Positions 5,708-21,866 of a DNA stretch of 54,928 bases are shown here, piece after piece. The stretch is taken from positions 1 through 54,928 of the forward strand of contig JAYTXX010000141.1 of assembly GCA_043742725.1 (NCBI GenBank), given 5' to 3'. The stretch comes from Bacteroidota bacterium. GTDB lineage: Bacteria > Bacteroidota > Bacteroidia > 2-12-FULL-35-15. The number at the start of each line of letters is the position of its first letter. The stretch's first letter is position 1. A program made the position numbers and the translations under genes. The notes under the pieces were generated by a model. That model saw only the letters and a program-made list of their open reading frames with translations, had not been told where the DNA came from and searched no databases.

Positions 5708-7426
5708 TTAATTTATCGGATGAAAAACAGGACCTTCTCTCTTCACCATATTTTTTTCGGTTAAAGAGGTTAATATTTTTTGCAATTGATTTTTTGAAAT
5801 ACCTGTTGTTTCACTAATGCTTGCTATTGTTGCTTGATTTTGTTTTGTTACTTCCGCTAAAATTTTTTGTTCATCTTCGGTTAAAATAATTGCAGTCTTT
5901 TTTATTTCTTTTACAACCTCTGGTCGCATTTGCGGAAAAAATAAAACATCTTGTATAGAATGTGAATTAGTCATTATCATTGCTAATCTGTCAATGCCAA
6001 TTCCAATGCCTGATGTAGGAGGCATTCCATATTCTAATGCACGTAAAAAATCATAATCAATAAACATTGCTTCATCATCTCCACGTTCCATCAATTGACT
6101 TTGTTCTTCAAATCGGGCACGTTGGTCAATTGGGTCGTTTAATTCAGAATAAGCATTTGCTAATTCTTTTCCATTTACCATTAACTCAAAACGCTCTACC
6201 AATCCAACTTTGCTACGGTGCTTTTTTGTAAGCGGACTCATTTCAATTGGATAATCTGTAATAAAAGTTGGTTGAATATAATTGCCTTCGCATTTTGCAC
6301 CAAAAATTTCATCAATCAACTTTCCTTTTCCCATGCTTGGTGCAACCTCAATGTGTAGCTGTTTACAAACATCACGTAATTGGTTTTCATCCATTGTGCT
6401 GATATCAATTCCCGTAAAATCTTTTATAGATTCAAACATAGTAACACGTTTGAATGGACGTTTAAAATCAATTACATTTTCGCCAACCTGCACTTTTGTA
6501 GTTCCATGCAAATCCATTGCAATTTTTTCGATTAATTCTTCCGTTACATCCATCATCCAATAATAATCCTTGTAAGCTACATACAGCTCCATTACTGTAA
6601 ATTCAGGATTGTGTGTTCTGTCCATTCCTTCGTTGCGGAAGTTTCGAGAAAATTCATAAACGCCATCAAAACCTCCAACAATTAAGCGTTTTAAATACAA
6701 TTCGTTTGCAATACGCAAATACATTGGAATATCTAAAGTGTTGTGATGTGTAACAAATGGACGAGCCGCTGCTCCTCCCGGAATAGCTTGTAATACAGGC
6801 GTATCAACCTCCAAATATCCCATTGCGTTATAAAAATCACGAATGGTATTCATCATTTTTGTGCGTTTTACAAACGTATCTTTTACTTGTGGATTTACAA
6901 TCAAATCGACATAACGTTGACGATAACGAAACTCAGGGTCGGTAACTTCATCAAATGCGTTTCCTTCTTCATCACGTTTTACTATTGGTAAAGGGCGCAA
7001 TGCCTTACTCAACATTTTAAATGTGGTAGCGTGAATTGAAATTTCGCCAACTTTTGTAATAAACACAAATCCTGTAATGCCAATAATATCGCCTATATCG
7101 GTATGTTTTTTAAACAATACATCAAACAATGTTTTATCTTCATTAGGGCAAATATCATCTCTGCGAATATATACTTGAATACGTCCAGAAGCATCTTGTA
7201 AACTCACAAAACATGCTTTTCCCATATCACGAACACTCATCACACGACCAGCAATGTTGATGTTTTTATATTCATTTTCTTTTTCTATCGAAAAATTGTC
7301 TAAAATGTTTTTTGCTGTTGCATTTATTTCAACTAATGGTGCTGGATAGGCATCAATGCCCATTTTAGTAATATCTTCAAGCTTTTGACGTCTTAATAAT
7401 TCTTGTTCACTATGTTCGGTACTCAT
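5708..7426 (-). CDS. lysS: Lysine--tRNA ligase (class II) with a C-terminal winged-helix-like extension
   Basis: OB-fold N-terminus, RYRQRYVDL, GGAAARPF, FRNEG, HNPEFT, YGMPPTSGIGIGIDRL, FFPQMRP. Confidence 0.98.
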   Translation of the reverse strand: MSTEHSEQELLRRQKLEDITKMGIDAYPAPLVEINATAKNILDNFSIEKENEYKNINIAGRVMSVRDMGKACFVSLQDASGRIQVYIRRDDICPNEDKTLFDVLFKKHTDIGDIIGITGFVFITKVGEISIHATTFKMLSKALRPLPIVKRDEEGNAFDEVTDPEFRYRQRYVDLIVNPQVKDTFVKRTKMMNTIRDFYNAMGYLEVDTPVLQAIPGGAAARPFVTHHNTLDIPMYLRIANELYLKRLIVGGFDGVYEFSRNFRNEGMDRTHNPEFTVMELYVAYKDYYWMMDVTEELIEKIAMDLHGTTKVQVGENVIDFKRPFKRVTMFESIKDFTGIDISTMDENQLRDVCKQLHIEVAPSMGKGKLIDEIFGAKCEGNYIQPTFITDYPIEMSPLTKKHRSKVGLVERFELMVNGKELANAYSELNDPIDQRARFEEQSQLMERGDDEAMFIDYDFLRALEYGMPPTSGIGIGIDRLAMIMTNSHSIQDVLFFPQMRPEVVKEIKKTAIILTEDEQKILAEVTKQNQATIASISETTGISKNQLQKILTSLTEKNMVKREGPVFHPIN

Positions 7427-7448
7427 TTAAAAAGGATTTATTTTTTGG

Positions 7449-7456
7449 CAAATATA
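7449..7456 (-). promoter_or_regulatory. Bacteroidota sigma-A -7 element (TATATTTG) for lysS
   Basis: Matches TAnnTTTG 22 bp upstream of the lysS start. Confidence 0.65.
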
Positions 7457-7556
7457 CAAGCAAAGCGTGAAATATGAATTTAAAAACTTCAATAATATCT
7501 CCACAAAAAATTGTATTTTCACATCCTCATATTATTAAAAATAAAAATATAAAGCG

Positions 7557-14444: not shown

Positions 14445-17400
14445 ATGAAAAAATATAAACTGCTTTTATTTTTGCTCTTGAACGTACTACTCTGTAATCG
14501 TTCAATCACAGCGCAAACAACAAGTTTTCTATACTATGGTGTGGAACAAGGATTGTCGCAATCGCAAGTACAGTGCATTACTCAAGACGATGAAGGAAAT
14601 CTTTGGATTGGTACACTATCTGGATTAAGTAAGTATAATGGTAGAGATTTTAAAATATATTCTAAAAATGATTCTTTAGCCGAAGATTGGGTAACATCTT
14701 TATGTAAAGATAAAAATGGAAATATTTGGTTTGGACATTGGGCAGGCGGAGTATCTATGTACAATCATAAAACGCAGAAAATAGAAAATTTAAAATTAGA
14801 AGAATATACGCGTTTCAAAACAGTTACTTCAATAACTCAAGATGAACAAAATCGTTATTGGATTGCAACGGAAGGTGCTGGTGTTTTTGTGTACGATCCT
14901 GAAAATAAAAAAATGGTTATGCTTACCAAAAAAGATGGATTGGGCAGTGATAATGTTTACAAAATATGCACAGATCAAAAAGGAAATGTGTGGGTGGCAA
15001 CAGATATTGGTATTACCATTTTCGATTCTAATTCATTATCAACACACAGCATATTAAATATTGGCAATGGCTTACATAGCAATAGAATTACCACAATGGC
15101 ATTGGCAAATGAAAATGAAATGTGGATTGGAAGTGCCGATGCTGGAGTGATGATATTGAAAATAAAAGATGATTTTTCGGTAAAAAATCCAACAAAAGCA
15201 ATTGAAAATGGTGGTCAGCGAATTGATTTAAAAGATGGATTGACGGCAAATTTTATTACCTCTATATTGGAAGATAAAACACACAATGTGTGGCTTGGAA
15301 CCATTGGTGGTGGTGCAATAAAAATTACTCCATTTCCTTCAAAAGATAGAACAGAAGCTATTTCTAAAGCTATTATTTATAACTATAACACAAAACAAGG
15401 ATTAAATTATTTTAATGCAAATACATTGTTTCAAGACCGAGAAAACAATATTTGGATTGGAACTGATATTGGTTTAAATGAATATCGTGGCGAACGATTT
15501 CAAATTTATGATGAAGCAGATAGCCTTACTAATAACCTTGTGTGGACAACGCTTGTGGACAGAGATGGAAATTTGTGGTTAGGAACGAATGATGGAATTT
15601 CAAAAATTACGTTTAGTTATTCTGCAATTAATAGAAAGCAAAATCATACGATAAAAAACTACAATACAAAAGATGGATTGAGTAGCAATGTGGTACTTTC
15701 TTCTTTTGAAGATAGAGATGGAAATTTATGGTTTGGTACAGGTTTCAATGGTGTTTGTAAATTTGATAGTAGAAAAAATAAATTTGAAACATACAATAAA
15801 GAGAATGGTTTAGCGGGAAATGTAGTGTTTGCAATAAGCCAAGACAATGCAGGAAACATGTGGTTTGGAACAAAAGAAGGAGCATCAAAATTTAATTCGG
15901 AAACAAAAGAATTTCGTAATTATACTATTGCTGATGGATTGGGAGGAAACAATGTTTATCGTATTTTCAAAGATAGCAAAGGTAATTTATGGTTTGGTGC
16001 ATTGGGTGGAAATTTATCCATGTTCGATGGAAATACATTTAAAAGTTTTACAGAAAAAGATGGAATGTACCACCGTTTTATTTTATGTATAAACGAAGAT
16101 AAACAACACAATTTGTGGTTTGGAGCTTATGGTGGTGGACTTTATAAATACGATGGAAAAACATTTATAAACTATACTGTAAAAGAAGGACTAACAACCG
16201 ATTCGCCATATTCAATTATAGCAGATAATGATAATCATGTTTGGATTGGAAGCAGCAGAGGCATTGATAGATTTGATAGTGAAACAAAAAAATTTATTCA
16301 TTATGGAAAGTCCGATGGATTTCTTGGAGTAGAAACAAATCCAAATGCAGTTTCAATTGATAAAGATGGAAACCTTTGGTACGGAACCATTATGGGTGCT
16401 GTGAGGTACAATCCAAAAGAAGACAAACAAAATAATATTGAACCCAAAACATACATCACAGGATTAAAATTATTTATGAAAGAGGTGCCATTTCCTGATG
16501 ATGCACGTTTTGCTTACAATCAAAATCACTTAACATTTTCATTCATTGGTACTAGCCTTTCAAATCCAGAAAAAGTAAAATATCAATATAAATTAGAAGG
16601 CTTTGATAAAGATTGGTTACCCGAATATACAACCGTGAATGAAGCTGTTTACACAAACTTACCTCCAGGATCTTATACTTTTTTGATAAGAGCTTGTAAC
16701 AGTGATGGAATTTTTAATATTCAACCAGCATCCTATAAATTTTTTATTGCTCCACCATTTTGGCAAACCATACTATTTTATGTTTTAGTATTTGTGTTTG
16801 GTGTTTTTGGAATTTATGTGTTTGATAAATTGCGTACACGAAAATTAAAACAAGCAAAAAAAATATTGGAAGGAAAAGTAGAAGAGCGCACTCAAGAATT
16901 AGCATATAAAAATATTGAACTTGCTGAAAAAAATAAAGATATTACCGATAGTATTCGTTATGCAAAACATATTCAAGAAGCCATATTGCCTCCTGAAACA
17001 GCAATTAGAAAATATTTACCAAACTCTTTTGTGTTTGCCAAACCCAAAGATATTGTAAGTGGAGATTTTTATTGGGTTGATAAAAAAGGAGATACCATTT
17101 TATTTGCTGCAATAGATTGTACTGGACATGGAGTTCCTGGAGCATTTATGAGTATTGTTGGACACGATATTTTAACACAAGTAGTAAGCGAAACATCAAA
17201 TGCATATCCATCTGAAATTTTAGATAAACTCAATAAAGGAGTAAGTGAAACATTAAAGCAAACTTCGGAAGGACACAAACTTCGTGATGGAATGGACATT
17301 GCATTGTGTGCATTGAATTTAAAAACAATGGAATTACAATTTGCTGGAGCCTACAATCCTTTGTACATAGTACGTGGAGGAGAATTTATTGAAGTGAAAG

Positions 17401-17693
17401 GAGATAACATTGCTATAGGAAGCTACACCGATGCGAGTCAAAAAAATTATACAAATCATATTATTAAAATACAAAAAGAGGATACGATTTATGTATTTTC
17501 AGATGGCTATGCCGATCAATTTGGTGGACCCGATGGAAAGAAATTTAAACTCGCACAATTCAAATCAATGATTATGAGTTTGAGTGGCGTTTCAATGACA
17601 CAACAAGAAATTGCCATTGAAAAATCAATTGAAGAATGGCGTGGTCCATTGCAACAGGTAGATGATATTTTAGTAATAGGCGTTAGAGTATAA
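14445..17693 (+). CDS. Membrane sensor phosphatase: periplasmic beta-propeller (Reg_prop) + Y_Y_Y + TM + SpoIIE/PP2C domain
   Basis: Repeated GL-x-x-N-x-V...D-x-x-GNLWxGT blades; YQYKLEGFD...YTNLPPGSYTF; PKDIVSGDFYW, DCTGHGVPGA, DGMD, SDGYADQFGG, DDILVIG. Confidence 0.93.
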   Translation: MKKYKLLLFLLLNVLLCNRSITAQTTSFLYYGVEQGLSQSQVQCITQDDEGNLWIGTLSGLSKYNGRDFKIYSKNDSLAEDWVTSLCKDKNGNIWFGHWAGGVSMYNHKTQKIENLKLEEYTRFKTVTSITQDEQNRYWIATEGAGVFVYDPENKKMVMLTKKDGLGSDNVYKICTDQKGNVWVATDIGITIFDSNSLSTHSILNIGNGLHSNRITTMALANENEMWIGSADAGVMILKIKDDFSVKNPTKAIENGGQRIDLKDGLTANFITSILEDKTHNVWLGTIGGGAIKITPFPSKDRTEAISKAIIYNYNTKQGLNYFNANTLFQDRENNIWIGTDIGLNEYRGERFQIYDEADSLTNNLVWTTLVDRDGNLWLGTNDGISKITFSYSAINRKQNHTIKNYNTKDGLSSNVVLSSFEDRDGNLWFGTGFNGVCKFDSRKNKFETYNKENGLAGNVVFAISQDNAGNMWFGTKEGASKFNSETKEFRNYTIADGLGGNNVYRIFKDSKGNLWFGALGGNLSMFDGNTFKSFTEKDGMYHRFILCINEDKQHNLWFGAYGGGLYKYDGKTFINYTVKEGLTTDSPYSIIADNDNHVWIGSSRGIDRFDSETKKFIHYGKSDGFLGVETNPNAVSIDKDGNLWYGTIMGAVRYNPKEDKQNNIEPKTYITGLKLFMKEVPFPDDARFAYNQNHLTFSFIGTSLSNPEKVKYQYKLEGFDKDWLPEYTTVNEAVYTNLPPGSYTFLIRACNSDGIFNIQPASYKFFIAPPFWQTILFYVLVFVFGVFGIYVFDKLRTRKLKQAKKILEGKVEERTQELAYKNIELAEKNKDITDSIRYAKHIQEAILPPETAIRKYLPNSFVFAKPKDIVSGDFYWVDKKGDTILFAAIDCTGHGVPGAFMSIVGHDILTQVVSETSNAYPSEILDKLNKGVSETLKQTSEGHKLRDGMDIALCALNLKTMELQFAGAYNPLYIVRGGEFIEVKGDNIAIGSYTDASQKNYTNHIIKIQKEDTIYVFSDGYADQFGGPDGKKFKLAQFKSMIMSLSGVSMTQQEIAIEKSIEEWRGPLQQVDDILVIGVRV

Positions 17694-17699
17694 TTTTAT

Positions 17700-18209
17700 A
17701 TGAATTTTATTGATTTAATTTTTTGCATTCCTCTTGTTTGGGGCATTTATAAAGGTTTCACAAAAGGCTTCATAATAGAAATTGCTTCTTTCATTGCATT
17801 TGCTTTAGGTATTTGGGGTGGTATAAAATTTTCCGATTTTATTGCTCATAAATTAACTGAACAATTTGATTGGCATTCAACATATTTGCCAATTATATCT
17901 TTTGTAATCGTTTTTTTAGCAATCATTATTGCTGTTTTTTTTGTTGCAAAACTCGTTCAAAAAATTATAGAAGGTATGGCATTAAGTGCTCTTAATAAAA
18001 TAGCTGGAGCCATTGTTGGGTTTTTAAAATTCGCATTAATTATTAGCGTTTTTATTTTTGTGATTGATGCAATTGAAAAAAGTTATCCGTTAATTTCATT
18101 CAAATCAAAAGAAGAATCATTGCTTTATAAACCAATAGGAAAGATAGCTCCAGCGCTTATTCCAAGTTTGAGTCAAAGCAAAATAAATTCAATAATTCCT
18201 GAAAAGTAA
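17700..18209 (+). CDS. cvpA: CvpA (colicin V production) family membrane protein
   Basis: MNFIDL...GFTKGFIIE, LNKIAGAIVG, ESLLY. Confidence 0.88.
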   Translation: MNFIDLIFCIPLVWGIYKGFTKGFIIEIASFIAFALGIWGGIKFSDFIAHKLTEQFDWHSTYLPIISFVIVFLAIIIAVFFVAKLVQKIIEGMALSALNKIAGAIVGFLKFALIISVFIFVIDAIEKSYPLISFKSKEESLLYKPIGKIAPALIPSLSQSKINSIIPEK

Positions 18210-18229
18210 ATTTGTCTATTTCATTTTTG

Positions 18230-18237
18230 TACATTTG
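18230..18237 (+). promoter_or_regulatory. Bacteroidota -7 element (TACATTTG) just upstream of the Cys-rich leader ORF
   Basis: TAnnTTTG ending 8 bp before ATG 18246. Confidence 0.6.
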
Positions 18238-18245
18238 TAATGTAA

Positions 18246-18644
18246 ATGAAAACAACACAAAAAATAATCTCTCTTTTTTTAGCATTTATTTTTTTGCTTT
18301 CCTCGCTTGGTTTTACTGCCAATAAAATGGTTTGTTTGAAAAGCGGAAAAACAAAGTTGTCGTTGGTTCATTTGAAAGATTGTTGTCCCGAAAAAAAATC
18401 AGTAACTCCACTTTTAAAAAGCGATTGTTGCAATATCAACAATATATATTTTAATTTAAGCGATTTTCAACACGCTGAAAAAAATAATATAGAACAACCT
18501 TCTTCGCAAATTTCGTTTGTAAATCCAACTCAAAAATTTAAAATAAATACTTCAACATTTGTTTTAACACATTCTTCTTTCGTTATTCCGCCAAAGCTTT
18601 CGGGCAGAGAACTACTTTCTTTTATTTCTATTCTTACCATTTGA
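18246..18644 (+). CDS. Cys-rich secreted protein, HYC_CC_PP-like; putative regulatory leader of the TonB-dependent receptor
   Basis: Signal peptide, MVC, DCC twice, C-terminal IPP...ILTI-stop; lies directly upstream of a TBDR. Confidence 0.8.
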   Translation: MKTTQKIISLFLAFIFLLSSLGFTANKMVCLKSGKTKLSLVHLKDCCPEKKSVTPLLKSDCCNINNIYFNLSDFQHAEKNNIEQPSSQISFVNPTQKFKINTSTFVLTHSSFVIPPKLSGRELLSFISILTI

Positions 18645-18716
18645 TTTTTAAAAAATAATTTTTGCTGTTCTGCATGTTTCTGTTTTTCAGAAAAAAAATC
18701 GTTTTAAAAAATCAAA
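18640..18716 (+). promoter_or_regulatory. Intergenic stem-loop pairing the leader stop codon with the TBDR initiation region
   Basis: TTTGATTTTT (18640-18649) pairs with AAAAATCAAA (18707-18716); AAAA/TTTT continues after one mismatch; inner TTTCTG/CAGAAA. Confidence 0.55.
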
Positions 18717-18719
18717 AAA

Positions 18720-20933
18720 ATGTATCGTATAATTTTATTTTTAATTTTCATTGCTCATTCATTAGCAGCTCAACACACTATGGGAAAAGTGTTTGGCATT
18801 AATGATAAAGGAGCAAATGAAGCTTTGCCAGGAGCAAATGTTTATTGGCAAAATACCATGATTGGTAGCACAACAGATGCCAATGGAATGTTTCAAATTC
18901 CCAATCCAGACAGTGTTCCAGCAAAATTAATTGTGAGTTTGGTTGGTTATGTGAGCGATACCTTGCTTGTTAAAGTTAGTAACCAAATGGATTTGAAAAT
19001 AATTTTAAAAAATTCTATTACACTCAAAGAAATAAATGTGGAAGCGAAACAAAACTCAACATTGTACTCTTCGTTCAATCCAATTAATACAGAAATAATA
19101 AGTGGAAAAGAATTATTGAAAGCTGCGTGTTGTAATCTTTCCGAAAGCTTTAGCACCAACGCATCGGTTGATGTTGCTTTTACAGATGCTGTTTCGGGAG
19201 CAAAAAAAATTCAGATGCTTGGTTTAGATGGCGTTTACACACAATTACTTTCTGAAAACATTCCAATAATGAGAGGACTTTCGGCTGGTTATGGAATTAA
19301 TTATATTCCAGGAACTTGGATTGATAATATTTTAGTTACCAAAGGAACAGGTAGTGTTGTTAATGGTTATGAAAGTATTTCTGGACAAATTAATTTGGAA
19401 TTTTTAAAACCACAGGAGCAAAAAAAACGCTTTTTCATTAATATTTATGGTAATGAAAAAGGTAGAGCAGAAGCTAATATTCATTTTGCAAAAAAGCTAA
19501 ATGATAAATGGAGCACTATGCTTTTTGTACACGCAAACGATTTGAGTGTGAAGCAAGATATGAACAAAGATGGTTTTTTAGATATGCCATTAATTCGTCA
19601 GTATAATGTTTTCAATCGTTGGAATTATCACAGTGGTAAGCGTTTGGAAGCACAACTTGGAATAAAAGCGTTGTATGAAACACGTCAAGGTGGACAAACA
19701 AATTTTAATTATTCTTCCGATTACGGAACTACAAAATCGTACGGAATAGGCATTAATACAAAGCAAGTAGAATATTTTTCAAAAACAGGAATTTTATTTC
19801 CAGCCACACCTTACAAAAGTATTGGAATACAAACTTCAGGAAAATGGCAACAACAGGAAATGTATTTTGGTTTGCGAAAATATAAGGGAGAACAAAAAAA
19901 TTTTTATGCAAATGTGATTTATGCAAGTATTATTAATAACACAAATCATAAATATAAAATTGGCGCAAGTTATTTGTGGGACGATTATAATGAAAAATAT
20001 AATGATTCCGCATTTGTAAGAACAGAAAGCGTTCCGGGTGTTTTTGCGGAATACACCTATACATATTTAGAAAAATTTTCGTTGGTGGCAGGAGTGCGAG
20101 AAGATTATCATAATTTATATGGAATGCAATTTACACCTCGTTTGCATTTGCGTTGGAACGCAACAAAATCAACTACTTTAAGAATGTCAGGTGGAAGAGG
20201 ATTTAGAACTTCAAACATTTTTATTGAAAACCAATCGGTGTTCGCAAGTTCAAGAAAAGTAATTGTTCAAGAAAAATTTAAGCCCGAAATAGCTTGGAAT
20301 TATGGCTTTTCAGCGAATCAAAAATTCAAATTATTCGGCAACGAAGCATTTATAAATGTAGATTTTTTTAGAACTGATTTTCAAAATCAAATCATTGTTG
20401 ATTTAGACCAAAATGTAAATAAAGTAGTGTTTTATAATTTGAAAGGTCAATCATATTCCAATAGTCTGCAAGTTGATTTTGGTTTTGAACCGATAAAAGA
20501 ATTTGCCATAAAATTAGCTTACAAATGGTACGATGTAAAAACTACTTATAACTATGAATTGCTTGACAAACCCTATGTTCCAAAGCATCGTGTAATGTTG
20601 AATTTATCGTATTCAACGTACAAAGAAATTTGGAAATTTGATTTCACAATCAATTGGTTAGCCGAAAGTAGAATCCCAAGTACGGTGTTAAGCCCTGTGG
20701 AATATCAACTTTCCACACATTCAAAAAGTTATTTTTTATTACAAGCACAAATCACAAAAAAATTCAGGAAATTTGATTTGTATTTGGGTTGCGAAAATAT
20801 TTTGAATTATACACAATCAAATCCTATTGTTGCATCTGAAAATCCTTTTGGAACTAATTTTGATGCATCAATGATATACGCACCAATTGATGGACGAATA
20901 ACTTATTTAGGAATAAGATTAAGTATTAAATAA
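18720..20933 (+). CDS. TonB-dependent outer-membrane receptor with a Cys-Cys plug motif (probable heavy-metal substrate)
   Basis: Signal peptide, carboxypeptidase-regulatory-like N-domain, ELLKAACCNLSESF, KGTGSVVNGYESISGQIN plug end, barrel strands, terminal GRITYLGIRLSIK. Confidence 0.92.
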   Translation: MYRIILFLIFIAHSLAAQHTMGKVFGINDKGANEALPGANVYWQNTMIGSTTDANGMFQIPNPDSVPAKLIVSLVGYVSDTLLVKVSNQMDLKIILKNSITLKEINVEAKQNSTLYSSFNPINTEIISGKELLKAACCNLSESFSTNASVDVAFTDAVSGAKKIQMLGLDGVYTQLLSENIPIMRGLSAGYGINYIPGTWIDNILVTKGTGSVVNGYESISGQINLEFLKPQEQKKRFFINIYGNEKGRAEANIHFAKKLNDKWSTMLFVHANDLSVKQDMNKDGFLDMPLIRQYNVFNRWNYHSGKRLEAQLGIKALYETRQGGQTNFNYSSDYGTTKSYGIGINTKQVEYFSKTGILFPATPYKSIGIQTSGKWQQQEMYFGLRKYKGEQKNFYANVIYASIINNTNHKYKIGASYLWDDYNEKYNDSAFVRTESVPGVFAEYTYTYLEKFSLVAGVREDYHNLYGMQFTPRLHLRWNATKSTTLRMSGGRGFRTSNIFIENQSVFASSRKVIVQEKFKPEIAWNYGFSANQKFKLFGNEAFINVDFFRTDFQNQIIVDLDQNVNKVVFYNLKGQSYSNSLQVDFGFEPIKEFAIKLAYKWYDVKTTYNYELLDKPYVPKHRVMLNLSYSTYKEIWKFDFTINWLAESRIPSTVLSPVEYQLSTHSKSYFLLQAQITKKFRKFDLYLGCENILNYTQSNPIVASENPFGTNFDASMIYAPIDGRITYLGIRLSIK

Positions 20934-20950
20934 ATTTTAATTTTTAAAAA

Positions 20951-21316
20951 ATGAAAACAGTTAAATCAGCAATATTATTAGGCATTATAGTAATGCTTGT
21001 AATTTTTACAAACAACAAAACAATTGCACAGGAATCGAAATTTGCAGAAGTAAAAATTAAAACTTCATCGGTGTGTAATATGTGTAAAGAAACGATTGAA
21101 AAAGCATTGGCATTTGAAAAAGGTGTGAAAAAATCGGACTTGGAGGTAAAAACAGCAATAGTAACAGTTACTTACAATCCATTAAAAACATCACCTGAAA
21201 AAATTCGCATTGCTATTTCCAATGCAGGTTATGATGCTGATGATGTAAAAGCAAATCCGAAAGCGTATAAAAAATTGGATGAGTGTTGTAAAAAAGAAAA
21301 TCAAATACACGAGTAA
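20951..21316 (+). CDS. Periplasmic heavy-metal-associated (HMA, MerP/CopZ-like) protein
   Basis: Signal peptide, CNMC, IEKAL...GVK, AGY, C-terminal ECC. Confidence 0.88.
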   Translation: MKTVKSAILLGIIVMLVIFTNNKTIAQESKFAEVKIKTSSVCNMCKETIEKALAFEKGVKKSDLEVKTAIVTVTYNPLKTSPEKIRIAISNAGYDADDVKANPKAYKKLDECCKKENQIHE

Positions 21317-21344: not shown

Positions 21345-21866
21345 ATGGCATTAATAAAATCGGTAAAAGGTGTTCATCCCAAATTTGGAAAAGATTGTTA
21401 TCTCGCAGAAAATTCAACCATTGTAGGAGATGTAGAAATGGGTGAACAATGCAGTGTTTGGTTTAATGCAGTTGTTCGTGGTGATGTAAATTCCATTAGA
21501 ATGGGAAACAAAGTGAATGTGCAAGATGGAGCAGTAATACATTGTACATACGAAAAAACAAAAACCATAATTGGTAACAATGTTTCTATTGGACACAATG
21601 CGTTGGTTCACGGATGTACTATTCACGATAATGTGTTGATTGGAATGGGTGCAATTGTAATGGATAATTGCGAAATTGGAAGCAATACTATTATTGCCGC
21701 AGGCGCTGTGGTACTGGAAAATACCAAAGTTGAGTCGGGAGTAATTTATGCTGGAGTTCCTGCAAAAAAAGTGAAAGATATTAATCAGGAATTAATACAC
21801 GGAGAAATAAATCGTATTGCAAATAATTATGTGATGTATAGTGGTTGGTTTAAAGAAGAAAAGTAA
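21345..21866 (+). CDS. Gamma carbonic anhydrase family (left-handed beta-helix) protein
   Basis: VWFNAVVRGDVN, NVQDGAVIH, IGHNALVHGC, hexapeptide repeats. Confidence 0.93.
   Translation: MALIKSVKGVHPKFGKDCYLAENSTIVGDVEMGEQCSVWFNAVVRGDVNSIRMGNKVNVQDGAVIHCTYEKTKTIIGNNVSIGHNALVHGCTIHDNVLIGMGAIVMDNCEIGSNTIIAAGAVVLENTKVESGVIYAGVPAKKVKDINQELIHGEINRIANNYVMYSGWFKEEK

Follow-up and report, generated by a model that had tools for sequence, protein, structure and literature searches.

What controls the translation of a receptor gene in a phylum that makes no use of Shine-Dalgarno (SD) sequences, and in which the regulation of single-gene translation is little known? This question is raised by a locus at positions 18230-21316 of a 54,928-nt stretch of DNA (contig JAYTXX010000141.1; the whole stretch is called the window below) from a Bacteroidota bacterium whose genome has 32% G+C. 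Three genes lie there in one direction: a small leader open reading frame (ORF), a gene for a TonB-dependent receptor (TBDR) and a gene for an HMA protein. An RNA helix joins the stop codon of the leader to the TBDR initiation region, and this helix is conserved and co-varies in homologous loci. We propose, with about as much doubt as confidence, that leader and helix together form a translational-coupling gate of the CutF type, in which the leader senses a metal.

The leader gene and its stop-to-start helix

The leader gene (18246-18644, on the + strand like the rest of the locus from the promoter box to the hexapeptide gene) encodes a Cys-rich protein of 132 aa that resembles DUF8199/HYC_CC_PP proteins, as judged from the ORF, NCBIfam model NF047658 and a homologue alignment. 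It is predicted to be exported or membrane-anchored, with an N-terminus that is basic and then hydrophobic (MKTTQKIISLFLAFIFLLSSLGF). The motifs KMVC (C30), DCC (C46-47), a further DCC (C61-62) and IPP are followed by a C-terminal SFISILTI (GRELLSFISILTI) that runs directly into the TGA stop (18642-18644). Pro115-Pro116 of the IPP (18588-18593; LPPP in most homologues) lie 16 codons 5' of this stop.

The 75-nt spacer between leader and receptor gene is closed by two arms of 24 nt each (18640-18663 and 18693-18716), which are 83% complementary and almost pure A/T and form the outer helix of the minimum free energy (MFE) fold. The 5' arm starts with the second and third bases of the last Ile codon and continues through the TGA and a further 19 nt; the 3' arm takes in the A-rich initiation region, at positions -27 to -4 relative to the TBDR ATG (18720). 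A small hairpin, UUUCUG-loop-CAGAAA (18677-18692), lies between them. The arm-to-arm duplex has an energy of -8.3 kcal/mol. When the 3' arm was shuffled 300 times with its composition kept, only 0.7% of the shuffles did as well, and among 416 same-strand junctions of the same genome with gaps of 50-150 nt (mean -3.66) this one is in the best 25. For the TBDR initiation region the unpaired probability is 0.265 (median 0.496), and only 4.2% of 400 gene starts in the genome were as low. The spacer interior folds with a z of -1.24 relative to shuffles, and a search of Rfam with positions 18100-18900 gave no match at E <= 1.

Most of this anatomy had been described in an original prediction made from the sequence of the window, and we recovered it: the 132-aa ORF with MVC, two DCC, IPP and ILTI before the TGA at 18642-18644, the AACCN in the receptor plug (KAACCNLSESF, C137-138), the TAnnTTTG box 8 bp before the leader ATG, a distance also kept in homologous loci, and the stem with the TGA in its 5' arm and its 3' arm over the A-rich region before the ATG. 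The HMA protein had been given as an exported CxxC protein ending in ECC; its CxxC was found, but the CC is not at the very end and sits 9-10 residues before it.

Several of the strongest stop-to-start pairings elsewhere in the same genome (contigs C67, C177, C164, C27 and C63) have a G+C-rich repeat in common, in which CCCTTAATCCCTTCTCCAAA pairs with GAGAGGGGC; it has the look of a palindromic repeat dispersed over intergenic regions.

Conservation and co-variation of the helix

Homologues of the leader were found in 29 genome and 19 metagenome loci, 14 of the latter holding both the stop codon and the downstream start, and their spacers were mostly 69-119 nt long. Nearly all spacers in 30 MFE folds were closed by a helix between the stop region and the region before the AUG. 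In this helix, the last codon, the stop and the next bases (commonly CAUUUGAUUU) pair with the TBDR AUG and the bases ahead of it (AAAUCAAAUG) and enclose one to three hairpins that show no sequence conservation. The arm sequences vary by lineage while their complementarity is kept, e.g., UGAUCUGU/ACAGAUCA, UUGUCUUUUU/AAAAAGACAA, UAGCA/UGCUA and UUUAUUGAU/AUCAAUAAA.

Pairing energies were compared without alignment, using 24-nt arms from 31 non-redundant loci out of 44 (spacer similarity <0.80). Cognate arms averaged -9.62 kcal/mol and non-cognate arms -5.63 kcal/mol, and none of 20000 permutations reached the cognate mean. Shuffled 3' arms averaged -4.48 and reversed arms -4.20 kcal/mol, and 25 of the 31 loci outdid 95% of their own shuffles. 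One or more stop-codon bases belong to the helix in 27/31 loci; its 3' arm reaches the AUG in 20/31 and ends no more than 10 nt from it in all 31.

Co-variation was also assessed in a fixed register, on a helix of 14 pairs in a naive MAFFT alignment of 30 spacers (locus L026 was left out because of its length). Here 70.7% of cells were paired, a share that fell to 38.8-46.5% on sliding the partner by 1-3 columns, and the covariation score was 0.155 (0.054-0.090 when slid). Observed pairing, doubly changed cells and covariation score were each reached in 0/500 shuffles; the number of pairs and the number of pair types stood out less (91 and 20 of 500 shuffles, respectively). Nine of the 14 helix pairs change on both sides. 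The terminal Ile codon itself co-varies with the base before the AUG, AUU being found with A and AUC with G (pair 9-185). The stem is not chance.

The helix also persists where its surroundings have changed. It is kept around a 279-nt spacer with an inserted, strongly folded element (L026:4406-4684) and in two loci of the canonical HYC_CC_PP family discussed below, with spacers of 266 and 229 nt (L060 and L063). In two metagenome loci (L041, from 1690, and L042, from 811) a gene for a cytochrome-c-like (CxxCH) protein replaces the TBDR gene and the pairing is retained, at -8.9 and -6.0 kcal/mol; the helix therefore goes with the leader gene and not with the receptor. Spacer interiors fold better than their shuffles (mean z -2.41; z < -2 in 30/53). 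As a separate observation, the spacers of L026, L060 and L063 carry very stable 200-nt inserts (whole-region MFE between -77 and -99 kcal/mol), and those of L060 and L063 have common flanks with a different inserted core.

The leader protein

Model NF047658 (HYC_CC_PP) matched the leader with 24.1 bits (E 4e-5; residues 5-92 only), below its cut-off of 28 bits, and with 23.1 bits in a genome-wide search. Fifty-eight homologues with 39-100% identity were found, and the precomputed Pfam assignment PF26622 (DUF8199) is attached to the protein of the window and to 56/58 of them; the nearest protein Atlas clusters are 94-100% DUF8199. A Pfam scan of the leader gave no match with a library that lacks the PF26622 model. 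These assignments agree with the HYC_CC_PP-like label of the original prediction, even though the family score is sub-cut-off, and the leader represents a divergent sister subfamily of HYC_CC_PP. The name-giving HYC is replaced by MVC, with M28 and C30 invariant in the subfamily, whereas CC (twice) and PP are present; this definition of the motifs was taken from the family name and the canonical members. NF047658 matched 82 of 301 sampled Bacteroidota genomes, and neither HYC_CC_PP nor DUF8199 was named in any paper that our literature search found.

Conservation along the leader is uneven. Residues 1-70 and 113-132 are largely invariant or nearly so in the homologue alignment (invariant columns C30, C46, C47, C61, C62 and I132), and residues 70-112 are not conserved. 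The last 20 residues are maintained through many synonymous codons: the Gly 13 positions from the end is present in 31/31 loci with four codons and the Leu nine positions from the end in 31/31 with five. This points to selection on the peptide in addition to the RNA helix, whose start lies four bases ahead of the stop.

The last CC keeps a nearly constant distance from the C-terminus: 69-71 residues in 52/54 subfamily homologues, 68-73 in 25/25 canonical members (mean 70.2, standard deviation 1.1) and 69-78 in 20/20 lower-scoring members (69-72 in 16 of them). The segment between the last CC and the C-terminal end is thus near-constant in length without being conserved in sequence, and the position of the last CC counted from the N-terminus varies from 59 to 69 in full-length canonical members. 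The last Pro is followed by 15 residues in 45/54 homologues and by 16 in 5/54, as in the window; across the family the PP lies 12-16 residues from the end. AlphaFold2 (AF2), run with the alignment, was confident only for a helix at residues 2-20 (predicted local distance difference test score 52.7, predicted template modelling score 0.22).

Stop-to-start pairing in the wider HYC_CC_PP family

A second, independent set of loci was taken from the canonical family. Among the 30 best NF047658 loci, 25 passed the ORF filter (L061, L064, L066, L067 and L078 were dropped), and 21 non-redundant loci entered the energy tests, from which L060, L063 and L076 were excluded for spacers >200 nt. The canonical downstream genes encode signal-peptide proteins of TBDR size or pumps of the resistance-nodulation-division (RND) type (N-terminus MLNKSIKFLIENKLV), and the spacers are mostly 59-120 nt long. 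Cognate arms averaged -11.09 and non-cognate arms -4.99, again none of 20000 permutations reached the cognate mean, and 18 of the 21 loci beat 95% of their own arm shuffles.

The genome of the window also holds two canonical paralogues of 137 and 131 aa, both above the NF047658 cut-off, at positions 2546-2959 and 7095-7490 (minus strand) of contig C200. Between them lies a cluster that encodes, among others, a multicopper oxidase of 761 aa, a beta-propeller protein and a secreted protein of 171 aa.

Promoter, receptor and metal context

The leader is preceded by a TAnnTTTG promoter -7 box (TACATTTG, 18230-18237) that ends 8 nt before its ATG. Such a box begins within -40 to -8 of the leader ATG in 21/26 loci, mostly at -16/-17, and the remaining five have one-mismatch boxes at the same position. 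In Flavobacterium johnsoniae the -7 element extends from T-12 to G-5, with the transcription start site 4-5 nt beyond it, and 87% of predicted leaders there are >10 nt (PMC6847099). From the position of the box at -16/-17 and the span of the F. johnsoniae element, transcription is predicted to start ~3-4 nt before the leader AUG, at ~18242-18243, which would give a 5' untranslated region of ~3-4 nt and a nearly leaderless leader mRNA. A scan for sigma-70 promoters and terminators was uninformative (19 sites, 20.8 expected).

The receptor gene (18720-20933) encodes a protein of 737 aa with an N-terminal CarboxypepD_reg-like domain (PF13715), a plug (PF07715, 29.4 bits) and a barrel (PF00593, 95.3 bits). 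Its C137-138 (19128-19133) belong to a plug motif, ELLKAACCN[LI]SESF, that is present in 30/30 TBDRs of homologous loci, and identity among 24 homologues is 69-77%. Comparison of the receptor with solved structures gave no close relative, only matches to the CirA barrel (E 1e-9). The third gene (20951-21316) encodes a 121-aa HMA protein (PF00403, 40.9 bits; DECCKKENQIHE) with a signal-like N-terminus that predicts export, a CxxC in the form CNMC (C42-45; 21074-21085) and a C-terminal CCKK (21284-21289); its PDB relatives are HMA domains for Cu, Hg and Zn. Of 27 complete loci, 26 have a third gene that encodes both CxxC and a C-terminal CC, and the order leader-TBDR-HMA is kept in homologous loci. 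The Cys pairs of receptor and HMA protein to which the original prediction drew attention are therefore conserved across loci. The locus is probably an operon for a thiophilic metal, most likely copper.

Beyond the HMA gene, a gene for a gamma-carbonic-anhydrase-like hexapeptide protein follows after 28 nt (21345-21866; NF050158 162.8 bits with a cut-off of 250, and Pfam Hexapep) and is possibly co-transcribed with it. A Hexapep gene (172-177 aa) lies 3' of the HMA gene in 8/10 sampled loci (L002, L006, L009, L012, L017, L024, L027 and L028), and 8/10 have a divergent pyridoxal-phosphate enzyme of Cys/Met metabolism upstream, which is not so in the window. These conserved neighbours could reflect genome kinship or a functional link, e.g., a metal-dependent enzyme fed by the uptake system. 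Upstream in the window, positions 14445-17693 encode a 1082-aa protein that, on a reading of its sequence alone, has beta-propeller/Y_Y_Y-like repeats and a single membrane segment and ends in a PP2C/SpoIIE-like part; a CvpA gene (17700-18209) sits between it and the leader promoter.

How the leader may gate the receptor gene

Coupling, the sensing of a metal by the leader, the sign of that response and the identity of the metal are what we infer from this anatomy. The promoter would leave almost no 5' leader on the operon mRNA, and the last codon of the leader, its stop and the next ~20 nt would pair across the folded 75-nt spacer with the A-rich TBDR initiation region. Efficient translation of the TBDR gene, and probably of the HMA gene too, would then have to wait until a ribosome on the leader arrives at the stop and opens the 5' arm. 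In F. johnsoniae it is structure, and not SD sequences, that tunes initiation (PMC6847099). Since Bacteroidota ribosomes ignore SD sequences and need an unstructured start, the TBDR start would depend on the leader ribosome opening the helix. This would be consistent with a folding model in which the mean unpaired probability from -18 to +5 was 0.37 for free RNA, 0.54 with a ribosome on the stop codon and 0.36 with a ribosome on the PP. The same values bear out a caveat of the original prediction, namely that the PP lies too far away to melt the stem.

The leader probably sets how often, or for how long, a ribosome stays on the stop codon. With the C-terminal peptide (PP...GRxLLSFISIxxI) still inside the ribosome, the Cys pairs of the leader would face the periplasm, and metal binding to these pairs would then alter arrest or release, as in CutF. 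Because the PP is too far from the helix, the nascent chain would have to gate passage beyond the PP or hold ribosomes at termination. The case for metal sensing is built on the exported Cys motifs, the conserved C-terminal peptide, the fixed CC spacing, the metal neighbours and the examples of CutF and CruR. Given that the same design precedes importers and efflux pumps, we argue that the sign of the response differs between subfamilies; a differing sign has already been noted for CutF and CruR (PMC9973294).

A more specific version of the gate can be imagined, which we think unlikely. The helix would place the TBDR start beside the terminating ribosome, and this ribosome or its small subunit would reinitiate across the spacer; the C-terminal peptide would act as a termination arrest, and a ruler of ~70 residues would see to it that the last Cys pair emerges from the translocon into the periplasm when the ribosome is at the stop. 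Reinitiation from stop to start across a folded spacer of 60-120 nt would be a bacterial counterpart of ribosome shunting.

Weighing the evidence

Several results weigh against the proposed gate and need to be considered with caution. The stem of the window, taken alone, is AU-rich and only moderately unusual (25th of 416 junctions): its whole-region fold of -14.7 kcal/mol is marginal (z -1.92), since 6/200 shuffles equal it. The gain in accessibility in the folding model exceeds 0.15 in only 17/31 loci. A stall at the PP was rejected as the opener of the stem, as the PP lies 12-16 codons from the stop and no opening was seen in the folding model, and the window has PP where most homologues have PPP. 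Nor is the helix a family-wide rule: only 4/16 lower-scoring HYC_CC_PP loci reach -7 kcal/mol (with a crude choice of the downstream start), and neither of the two canonical paralogues in the same genome pairs its stop and start arms (-2.6 kcal/mol each). The occurrence of one design 5' of importers (TBDR) and exporters (RND pumps) is hard to reconcile with a single sign of regulation. The constant 70-residue spacing could instead mirror a folded mature protein, which a hydrophobic stretch between CC and PP in canonical members would fit. None of 29 subfamily members matched DUF2946, the family of CutF and CruR, or any other relevant Pfam family, at E up to 10; the likeness to CutF and CruR is therefore one of design rather than of demonstrated homology.

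Two alignment-based tests of the RNA structure were likewise unfavourable. The original prediction had proposed looking in homologues for a covarying stem that spans the stop codon and the initiation region, and we found it conserved and co-varying (0/20000 permutations), though RNAalifold, run on the MAFFT alignment of 30 spacers, gave 0 pairs. A covariance model built from that alignment recovered 26/30 training sequences and missed both the window element and the canonical loci at E <= 1. Realignment to the model was no better, with 71.4% of cells paired and a covariation score of 0.133 that was reached in 7/500 shuffles. We attribute these failures to an unalignable interior and to shifts in helix register, and they remain weaknesses.

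Three other explanations deserve weight to different degrees. The helix might couple translation constitutively and fix a ratio, with the leader being a stable Cys-rich metal-binding subunit, membrane-anchored or periplasmic, that works in metal uptake and does not sense as a nascent chain. All evidence on the helix fits this equally well, and the N-terminal 70 residues and five Cys are as strongly conserved as would be expected of a working protein; the hydrophobic CC-PP stretch in canonical members could be structural and the fixed CC-to-end length a constraint of the fold. Yet AF2 found no confident fold beyond the N-terminal helix, and residues 70-112 vary in sequence at a fixed length. 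Ordinary coupling, moreover, mostly involves overlapping or adjacent stops and starts (PMC10666635) and not folded spacers of 60-120 nt, while the design matches the proven sensor leaders CutF and CruR. We therefore consider purely constitutive coupling to be somewhat unlikely.

The spacer might also serve transcription or RNA processing, as a Rho-dependent or intrinsic terminator, an RNase site or a stabiliser, and have no part in initiation. CruR is the precedent, as a DUF2946 leader before a TBDR that acts through Rho-dependent termination in a long intergenic region (PMC9426467), and 13/53 spacers have terminator-like hairpins; with that number only, an intrinsic terminator was rejected as a general feature of the spacers, and the other 40/53, the window included, lack such hairpins. 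A tightly folded spacer is a poor loading site for Rho, and neither a terminator nor a Rho site would need the conserved pairing of stop codon and start region, so that control of this kind seems to us quite improbable. Chance complementarity of A-runs and T-runs in a genome of 32% G+C, without any function, is suggested by the almost pure A/T arms, by the z of only -1.92 and by the 25/416 junctions of the same genome that pair as well. Against it stand the co-variation of cognate arms in two independent sets of loci (0/20000 permutations in each), the far worse pairing of composition-matched shuffles and slid registers, and the retention of the helix despite spacer insertions, which together make chance extremely improbable.

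Comparison with known systems

The closest likeness is to CutF, encoded by the first gene of the Rhodobacter capsulatus cutFOG operon (PMC9973294; 10.1101/2025.02.05.636593). Like the leader described here, CutF is small and exported, has a Cys metal motif and a C-terminal proline motif, and heads a metal operon; in both cases the next gene has its initiation region masked by an intergenic stem, which in CutF is opened by the ribosome that translates the leader. The locus has what Ozturk et al. (2023) look for in a small exported ORF of the CutF-like type (132 aa, a basic-hydrophobic N-terminus and a TBDR gene 75 nt downstream on the same strand). Their proline motif among the last 15 residues is narrowly missed, as 16 residues follow the last Pro, and a stem that sequesters the downstream initiation region within reach of the finishing ribosome is present. 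A published count of CutF-like proteins covers Bacteroidota, including members with TonB-like and RND neighbours, and its spacer analysis, in the text cited here, concerns intergenic lengths only (PMC9973294). The differences from CutF are nevertheless considerable. The leader here is a DUF8199/HYC_CC_PP protein without a DUF2946 match, carries CC pairs in place of CxxxC, and has its PP 12-16 codons from the stop, which places it at or beyond the limit of the published 15-residue filter. The stop codon itself pairs, over a folded spacer of 60-120 nt, with the start region and often with its AUG, there is no SD sequence, and the downstream gene encodes an importer-type TBDR where that of CutF encodes an oxidase.

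CruR (Bp2923) of Bordetella pertussis is likewise a Cys-motif upstream ORF that heads an operon with the gene of a TonB-dependent transporter in second place (PMC9426467), and this transporter, CrtA/BfrG, is a copper importer (PMC12914433). A long intergenic spacer follows the leader in both systems; that of CruR is quoted as 162 nt in PMC9973294. CruR differs in belonging to DUF2946 and in its motifs, CXXC and, at the C-terminus, a RAPP arrest motif. The original prediction had taken CruR as a case of translational control, which does not hold, since CruR acts by Rho-dependent transcription termination (PMC9426467). In the cited part of the same paper CruR homologues are reported in Proteobacteria and a few other phyla, and not in Bacteroidota. 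The idea that the leader is a Bacteroidota analogue of these proteins is partly supported, by the family likeness, the conserved stem, the box and the Cys pairs; the account of CruR was imprecise, and no DUF2946 match was found.

In SecM, VemP and MifM, an exported nascent chain holds the ribosome and so unfolds an intergenic stem-loop for the downstream gene (PMC9973294). They differ from the leader in sensing translocation and not a metal, in their unrelated arrest motifs and in regulating components of Sec or YidC. A fixed spacing from the exported part to the arrest point is expected in mechanisms of the SecM type. TnaC arrests ribosomes at the stop codon, senses cytoplasmic tryptophan and controls the access of Rho; the conserved C-terminal peptide of the leader (1-20 positions from the end, last residue invariant) might similarly hold the ribosome at the stop. 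Arrest of the TnaC type is also mentioned in 10.1101/2025.02.05.636593. Classical coupling and termination-reinitiation share with the proposed gate the dependence of downstream translation on a ribosome that finishes the upstream gene (PMC6728339; PMC10666635), but known cases have overlapping or close stops and starts, whereas here a helix juxtaposes codons 60-120 nt apart.

Compared with the described cases, this leader is thus set apart by its non-DUF2946 family, CC pairs, distant PP, stop-to-start helix, lack of an SD sequence, near-leaderless promoter and fixed CC spacing of ~70 residues. If the proposed gate is correct, the co-varying stop-to-start helix would give a role to a widespread, unnamed family (DUF8199/HYC_CC_PP). 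It would be a simple and testable gate before metal importers and efflux pumps, with the 70-residue spacing as a handle on co-translational sensing, and periplasmic metal sensing by a nascent chain of the CutF/CruR type would extend to another phylum with a different geometry.

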